From assembly GCF_024700885.2 (NCBI RefSeq), contig NZ_CP117016.1: 64,000 bases of DNA; one strand, given 5' to 3'. Shown one piece after another: positions 25,503 to 25,856 of the stretch. Within the stretch, counting starts at the first letter, position 1, and every line of letters starts with the position of its first letter. The stretch is from Escherichia coli. GTDB lineage: Bacteria > Pseudomonadota > Gammaproteobacteria > Enterobacterales > Enterobacteriaceae. The position numbers and the translations under genes are program-made. The notes under the pieces were generated by a model. The model was not told the DNA's origin. It was given only the letters and a program-made list of their open reading frames with translations, and made no database searches.

Positions 25503-25856
25503 ATGACGGCGTTACTCTCCAACTGGGTTGACGCGTGCTGCCTGTTAATGGCTCCGCTGAATGATGCCCTATACCGTTATGTGATGAACACCCGCCTGGG
25601 AACCATCCACGGCACGTCGGTCGGCGAACTGCTGGCGTGGATCAAAGAAGATGAAAACCCTCGCAAAGGCGAGATGGTGCTGATTATTGAAGGCCATAAA
25701 GCCCAGGATGACGAACTGCCCGCCGATGCGCTGCGTACGCTGGCGCTGTTGTAGGCTGAGCTGCCGTTGAAGCAAGCGGCGGCGTTGGCGGCAGAAATCC
25801 ACGGAGTGAAAAAGAATGCGTTGTATAAGTATGCGCTGGAACAGCAGGGGGAATAA
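25503..25856 (+). pseudogene. 3' fragment of an rsmI-like (16S rRNA 2'-O-methyltransferase) gene with in-frame stop
   Basis: ..[82 protein letters not shown] matches the RsmI C-terminus; the N-terminal ~200 aa are absent and a TAG interrupts the frame. Confidence 0.6.

Follow-up and report, generated by a model that had tools for sequence, protein, structure and literature searches.

A truncated rsmI fragment in a serX pathogenicity island of Escherichia coli very probably marks the end of a captured enterobacterial chromosome segment

A 3' fragment of rsmI (hereafter rsmI') in a 64-kb stretch of Escherichia coli DNA (the window), which was 100% identical to E. coli strain MLI114, is very probably an inert relic and marks a truncated end of chromosomal DNA that came from a foreign enterobacterium and is now cargo in a serX pathogenicity island. 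The gene rsmI, also known as yraL, encodes the 16S rRNA cytidine-1402 2'-O-methyltransferase. The anatomy of the fragment, its joints, its foreign divergence, the presence of an intact native copy, and the synteny found in other genomes were all observed directly. Taken by itself, rsmI' is an ordinary pseudogene scar, already flagged as a pseudogene by PGAP/RefSeq in hundreds of genomes.

DNA homology indicated that rsmI' consists of the last 263 nt of the gene (nt 602 to 864 of 864), corresponding to codons about 201 to 287 plus the stop codon. When the 64-kb window was searched by tblastn, residues 204 to 286 of K-12 RsmI aligned with 25602 to 25850 at 88% identity (E = 6.6e-32), and the NCBIfam RsmI equivalog profile NF011570 was matched over positions 204 to 287 of 287 (E = 7.2e-44). 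A preliminary description of this region, which had recognized the last ~85 codons of an RsmI-like gene, was thus borne out, except that the first 92 nt of the span that it reported (25503 to 25594 of 25503 to 25856) were not rsmI. The score on NF011570 was 150 bits, below the equivalog cutoff of 502 bits. The match was nevertheless to RsmI, and blastn against the intact rsmI of E. coli MFDS1019527 gave 226 identities over 259 positions (E = 8e-90). The RsmI_C domain was the only Pfam domain matched; there was no match to the catalytic methylase domain, and the 601 nt missing from the start of the gene comprise the entire methyltransferase domain. Neither the list of open reading frames nor the RsmI search of the 64-kb window revealed a full-length rsmI overlapping 25503 to 25856, and RsmI residues 1 to 203, or a second RsmI-like piece, were not found elsewhere in the window. 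PGAP labels the fragment "16S rRNA methyltransferase, internal stop; incomplete". Thus, rsmI' resembles the rsmI of Enterobacteriaceae over its last 263 nt (84 residues), RsmI_C included, and is convergent with sugar genes, as rsmI is in Enterobacter chromosomes. It differs from intact rsmI in lacking the catalytic domain, in having a TAG and a 1-nt deletion, in being ~15% divergent from the host gene, and in its locus.

The two lesions interrupt the reading frame. The premature TAG, already noticed in the preliminary description, takes the place of a CAG that was present in every intact rsmI compared. None of 17 intact rsmI genes had the T that creates it (rsmI nt 760); all three island variants had it. 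This T is one of eight bases of rsmI' that were absent from the 17 intact genes, all eight of which were common to the three variants. The 1-nt deletion, near 25602 and 8 nt from the 5' edge of the fragment, changed GGGAAACC to GGGAACC.

Table 1. Features of the window in and around the rsmI fragment
Feature	Position	Strand	Remarks
Left island end	9856-10133	+	K-12 downstream-of-serX sequence whose end is the last 14 nt of tRNA-Ser
Mokosh type I pair, mkoA (19040-24010) and mkoB (24007-25443)	19040-25443	+	Within the segment 18370-25508
IS66-family tnpC internal remnant	25509-25594	+	About nt 703-789 of the 1,614-nt tnpC; TnpC residues from about 235
rsmI 3' fragment (rsmI')	25595-25856	+	
In-frame TAG	25752-25754	+	Replaces CAG at RsmI codon 254, midway through RsmI_C
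Spacer between rsmI' and the alpha-galactosidase-like gene (convergent)	25857-25922		66 nt; 32-48 nt 84-91% identical to the Enterobacter spacer
Alpha-galactosidase-like gene (637 aa), first captured gene	25923-27836	-	89-92% amino acid identity to Enterobacter genes directly beside intact rsmI
MalY/PatB-family gene	27826-29004	-	87% DNA identity to Enterobacter
MalX-like PTS IIBC gene	29013-30620	-	95-96% amino acid and 87% DNA identity to Enterobacter
kbaY 3' fragment (class II aldolase)	30698-30955	-	PGAP pseudogene; 85-87% identical to Enterobacter versus 77% to K-12 kbaY
agaR, island copy	31285-32109	+	With the kbaZ 5' stub (30967-31036), forms a patch 98.7% identical to K-12
garD pseudogene (UxaA family)	32172-33339	-	Annotated by PGAP; 89.6% identical to K-12 garD

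The residues preceding the RsmI match had been described as diverging from RsmI, and they do, but it had been missed that the DNA encoding them is a remnant of an IS66-family tnpC. The remnant was 92 to 95% identical to the ISEc23-like tnpC genes present in thousands of E. coli chromosome and plasmid records (best plasmid match, 97.7%), and PGAP annotates it as an incomplete pseudogene. Its position within the gene was determined on the complete tnpC of pMTY9757 (2299 to 3912 of the compared sequence), which lies on the same strand. Over 86 to 87 nt it resembles the tnpC of ISEc23 and ISEc8-like IS66 elements (92 to 98% identity). Unlike an IS66-family element, however, it is accompanied by no inverted repeats, no tnpA or tnpB, and neither end of tnpC, and is debris. 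At the joint, ATGAACACCCGC is followed directly by CTGGGAACCATCCAC, so that the interior of tnpC passes into the interior of rsmI with at most 1 to 2 nt of shared sequence. Insertion of an IS puts an IS terminus at the junction. Because the joint is internal on both sides and has no IS end, its anatomy points to an illegitimate deletion or recombination joint rather than a transposition junction. Further TnpC-like remnants of the IS66 family, with 43 to 53% amino acid identity to ISEc23-like TnpC, were present at 39049 to 39153, 53345 to 54016, and 60839 to 60979; such scattered remnants are consistent with repeated IS66-family activity and decay in the island.

A query spanning the joint matched about 550 of the 5,426 complete E. 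coli genomes (295 like the window, with mkoB upstream, and about 220 like ATCC 25922 and UTI89). All three features (joint, TAG, and 1-nt deletion) were found together in roughly 500 of the 5,426, including UTI89 and ATCC 25922. The joint, TAG, and deletion in ATCC 25922 and A33, whose serX island lies next to dgcT, were identical to those in the window, at 97 to 98% identity. That these three features are common to ATCC 25922, A33, and the window indicates that the joint arose once. The island variants differed at 6 to 8 of 262 rsmI' positions, non-synonymous ones included. In ATCC 25922 and A33 the IS66 remnant is 117 nt long and is directly preceded by an inovirus Gp2-type gene. The window has 7.1 kb (18370 to 25508) where ATCC 25922 has 100 bp, a segment lacking from serX islands of the ATCC 25922 type, and its IS66 remnant is about 33 nt shorter. 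Within these 7.1 kb, PADLOC identified adjacent genes for MkoA (1,656 amino acids; E = 0; profile positions 1 to 1603 of 1607) and MkoB (478 amino acids; E = 1.9e-151), a predicted Mokosh type I system. Regions of the NERD, kinase-like, and SF1 helicase types are present in MkoA; the PGAP names for the two products are "AAA domain-containing protein" and "hypothetical protein". Immediately ahead of the pair is a TOTE-system primase pseudogene.

Lacking the catalytic domain, rsmI' is predicted to make no RsmI, and the likelihood that it functions at all appears to be very small; 2'-O-methylation of C1402 in the 16S rRNA of the cell relies on the native, intact rsmI. One could suppose that the fragment was retained for a function, either because an open reading frame that joins tnpC' to rsmI' is translated after mkoB or because the 3' end of rsmI and the adjoining spacer form the terminator of the convergent alpha-galactosidase operon. 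The plus-strand translation of 25440 to 25859 does read through the joint. The two remnants share one frame in a 104-codon open reading frame (25440 to 25754), the TTG start of which overlaps the mkoB stop codon (the first ATG is at 25485). Moreover, the spacer is partly conserved with Enterobacter, and the joint has been maintained in about 500 genomes. However, an in-frame fusion arises by chance one time in three, the TAG halves RsmI_C, the sole recognizable domain, and islands of the ATCC 25922 type have the joint without mkoAB upstream. A crude consensus scan of 25200 to 26100 found no promoter-like site, and the single weak terminator site in the same interval, inside rsmI' on the minus strand, was no more than shuffled sequences give. 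Clonal descent and linkage explain the conservation, and the positions that vary among island variants include non-synonymous ones. Thus, a retained function is very unlikely. The specific proposal that, in the roughly 295 Mokosh-carrying genomes, the open reading frame yields a cotranscribed chimeric protein that modulates defence or the ribosome is supported by nothing and is extremely unlikely.

The fragment lies about 15 kb inside an island that is integrated at serX, beside efeO-efeB-phoH. The 3' end of serX, represented by the last 14 nt of tRNA-Ser, was located at 10120 to 10133 (reverse complement, TGGCGGTGAGGGGG). Island DNA begins at 10134, and a tyrosine integrase gene occupies 10294 to 11496. 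This arrangement of an integrase beside a tRNA 3'-end junction is that of a tRNA-integrated island, the opposite end of which lies outside the window. Genes for salmochelin (iro) lie farther downstream. The serX islands in extraintestinal pathogenic E. coli strains (ExPEC) encode S/F1C fimbriae, salmochelin, and Ag43. The window shares with PAI-UTI89-serX and PAI-CFT073-serX the integration at the 3' end of serX, a P4-type integrase, and the downstream iro genes; it differs from them in that a DUF2726 gene replaces pga-dgcT-ycdU between phoH and serX and in the added Mokosh cassette. The UTI89 copy of the joint (1089441 to 1089832) falls within PAI-UTI89-serX, which was published at 1080842 to 1142536 (PMC7545054). 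A search of the literature for an rsmI fragment or aga/gar remnants in serX islands found nothing specific.

This setting bears on another explanation, in which an element that brought its own copy of the rsmI 3' end inserted there, so that a displaced 3' fragment stayed behind at one of its boundaries. Conserved genes are frequent integrase targets at their 3' ends, where partial duplicates then remain, and there is an integrase gene 15 kb upstream of rsmI'. Such an origin is nevertheless highly improbable, because the attachment sequence of the island is the 3' end of serX and because rsmI' abuts the interior of an IS66 tnpC and not an island end. No second rsmI piece was present in the window, no matching repeat of the rsmI 3' end was found at a mobile-element boundary in this genome or in a donor genome, and the intact rsmI is 15% divergent and at an unrelated locus. 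As a sequence 15 kb inside the island with no partner copy in the window, rsmI' was therefore rejected as an attachment-site duplicate.

The reading of rsmI' as the end of a captured segment is based on what lies beyond it. The genes that follow are, in order, an alpha-galactosidase-like gene, a malY-like gene, and a malX-like gene (all on the minus strand), kbaY', a kbaZ stub, agaR (plus strand), and garD' (minus strand). The order agaS-kbaY-malX-malY-alpha-galactosidase-like gene, and then an intact convergent rsmI, was found at eight loci outside the island. Five were in named Enterobacter genomes (E. cloacae M-7, E. quasihormaechei, E. hormaechei subsp. hoffmannii, E. soli, and Enterobacter sp. 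RIT418), and the others were in an Enterobacter MAG, in Yokenella regensburgei, and in an unclassified member of the Enterobacteriaceae, which has an extra aga gene in between. Wherever lpoA was detected at these loci, it was next after rsmI. In a scan of one genome per species, the alpha-galactosidase-like gene was directly beside rsmI in many more genera. Thus, the island and the native aga-rsmI locus of Enterobacter, Yokenella, and relatives have an identical order and orientation of kbaY, malX, malY, and the alpha-galactosidase-like gene with a convergent rsmI. The island copy differs from that locus in its sequence (82 to 88% DNA identity), its truncation, and its decay, and no sampled species is the donor. 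Because the order is native in other genera, the segment is considered a captured piece of foreign chromosome, and rsmI' is where that piece ends. DNA identity to Enterobacter was 86 to 88% for the alpha-galactosidase-like gene, malY, malX, and kbaY' of the island, and the spacer next to rsmI' appears to have been captured together with both of its flanking genes. In addition, agaR and garD' are adjacent in the island without prlF-yhaV, as in Enterobacter-type loci and unlike E. coli.

These results modify the preliminary view of rsmI' as a deletion or recombination scar where island cargo meets a remodelled aga/gar segment. The scar does separate island cargo from an aga/gar-like segment, and rsmI and the aga region are indeed adjacent in K-12, but the scar is in a serX island flanked by efeOB-phoH and not at a K-12-type rsmI/aga site. 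Likewise, the order from kbaY through malX, malY, and the alpha-galactosidase-like gene to rsmI is not the product of remodelling, since it is native in Enterobacter; the term applies only to later internal deletions.

The host has its own rsmI. The corresponding region of MLI114, at 0.61 to 0.63 Mb, is intact and reads dolP-diaA-yraN-lpoA, rsmI, agaIDCB-kbaY-agaS-...-kbaZ, agaR, yhaV-prlF-garD. The intact rsmI, which the preliminary description had left to be located, is at 615872 to 616735, encodes 287 amino acids, and is 2.6 Mb from rsmI'. Full-length rsmI was present in 5,423 of 5,426 complete E. coli genomes. The DNA identity of rsmI' was 85.3% to the rsmI of MLI114 itself, 84.6% to K-12 rsmI, 85.9% to Salmonella rsmI, and about 82 to 85% to rsmI of Enterobacter and close relatives. 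Identity to the MFDS1019527 gene was 87.3%, and the comparisons with K-12 and MLI114 are given alongside because this allele is atypical. The differences between rsmI' and intact E. coli rsmI were distributed 10/2/22 over codon positions 1/2/3, a pattern of purifying selection which indicates that most of the divergence accumulated while the gene was functional in another lineage. On these sequence comparisons, rsmI' is a xenolog and neither a decayed duplicate of the host gene nor a broken resident gene.

The remaining alternative, that an island or IS inserted into the resident rsmI-aga locus, deleted the 5' two-thirds of rsmI in place, and remodelled aga/gar, accommodates the fact that rsmI, aga, and gar adjoin one another in K-12, with their relative order and orientation as in the island, but it is refuted by the intact rsmI-aga-gar locus of MLI114 and the identity of only 85.3% between the fragment and that rsmI, and flanks of efeOB-phoH and serX rather than lpoA, as well as malX, malY, and alpha-galactosidase-like neighbors that are native beside rsmI in other genera, leave it next to no probability.

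The sampled species included no donor above about 88% DNA identity. The best hit in the scan of one genome per species with the alpha-galactosidase-like protein was in Enterobacter (92% amino acid and 88% DNA identity), and a plasmid collection yielded mislabelled chromosomes only and no closer rsmI. Some E. coli alleles (87% identity) were marginally closer to the fragment than Enterobacter was (about 84%). Regarding the atypical MFDS1019527 allele, about 32 genomes matched it at 95% identity or more and 5,392 at 90 to 95%. It is 93.8% identical to K-12 rsmI, and its protein sequence is the same as that of the intact MLI114 rsmI. Recombination may have imported it into the native locus.

A single clean capture would over-simplify the history of the segment. 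The stretch from 30967 to 32091 (kbaZ stub, spacer, and agaR) was 98.7% identical to K-12 and 98.2% identical to the native locus of the same strain, between flanks of 77% (kbaY') and 89.6% (garD'). The segment is therefore mosaic, and the agaR patch looks like the product of gene conversion between the island copy and the native aga locus. Positions 26408 to 27907 were 83 to 93% identical to the ATCC 25922 island copy, with 96 to 100% identity on both sides, which suggests that a different allele supplied this patch by recombination and that the alpha-galactosidase-like gene is mosaic. The island variants have also lost different parts of the segment: malX is kept and the stretch from kbaY to kbaZ is lost in the window, whereas ATCC 25922 has lost most of malX and kept pieces of kbaY, agaS, and kbaZ.

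From a comparison of three island variants only, we infer the following order of events and deletion mechanism. The donor locus would have had the order garD, agaR, ..., agaS, kbaY, malX, malY, alpha-galactosidase-like gene, convergent rsmI, lpoA, and a stretch of it would have entered the serX island. At its rsmI end, the stretch was then probably severed at about codon 201, where an illegitimate joint fused it to the inside of an IS66-family tnpC and the methyltransferase domain was lost, and the change of CAG to TAG and the 1-nt deletion would have been acquired after the joint. Later, lineage-specific changes would include the differing internal aga deletions, the recombinant patch in the alpha-galactosidase-like gene, and the near-E. 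coli agaR patch. In the lineage of the window, the Mokosh type I cassette was presumably gained, at the cost of about 33 further nt of the IS66 remnant.

As dead DNA, rsmI' carries little functional weight. The joint between the IS66 remnant and rsmI', together with the TAG and the 1-nt deletion, is a single-origin marker for one ExPEC serX island module, and the synteny identifies that module as captured core chromosome of an enterobacterium, other than E. coli, that had an aga-rsmI locus of the Enterobacter type. For annotation, caution is warranted: a second "rsmI" or "agaR/garD" in such strains is island cargo and not a duplication of the native locus.

The malX-like gene of the island was considered as the classical "malX PAI marker". 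Presumed RPAi primer sequences gave no match at up to 3 mismatches, and we make no claim that it is this marker; one paper gives CFT073 c2013 as the malX reference. The 637-amino-acid protein encoded next to rsmI' is named "enterotoxin" or "alpha-galactosidase" depending on the RefSeq record and had no Pfam, NCBIfam, or PADLOC match. It is a conserved chromosomal neighbor of aga and rsmI in many Enterobacteriaceae, with distant relatives (31 to 47% identity) in MAGs of Verrucomicrobiota, Planctomycetota, and Gemmatimonadota. Two MAG contigs filed as "Collinsella sp." and "Lachnospiraceae bacterium" were 99.6 to 100% identical to the island segment and are almost certainly mis-binned E. coli contigs. 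At the left end of the island, the pgaABCD-dgcT-ycdU genes that lie between phoH and serX in K-12 are missing from the window, and the DUF2726 gene in their place is at 9163 to 9849. No intact tRNA gene was found in the 64-kb window. A perfect 98-nt direct repeat (9856 to 9953 and 10036 to 10133, 180 nt apart) consists of downstream-of-serX sequence plus the last 14 nt of the tRNA, and similar tandem 180-bp units are present downstream of serX in K-12.
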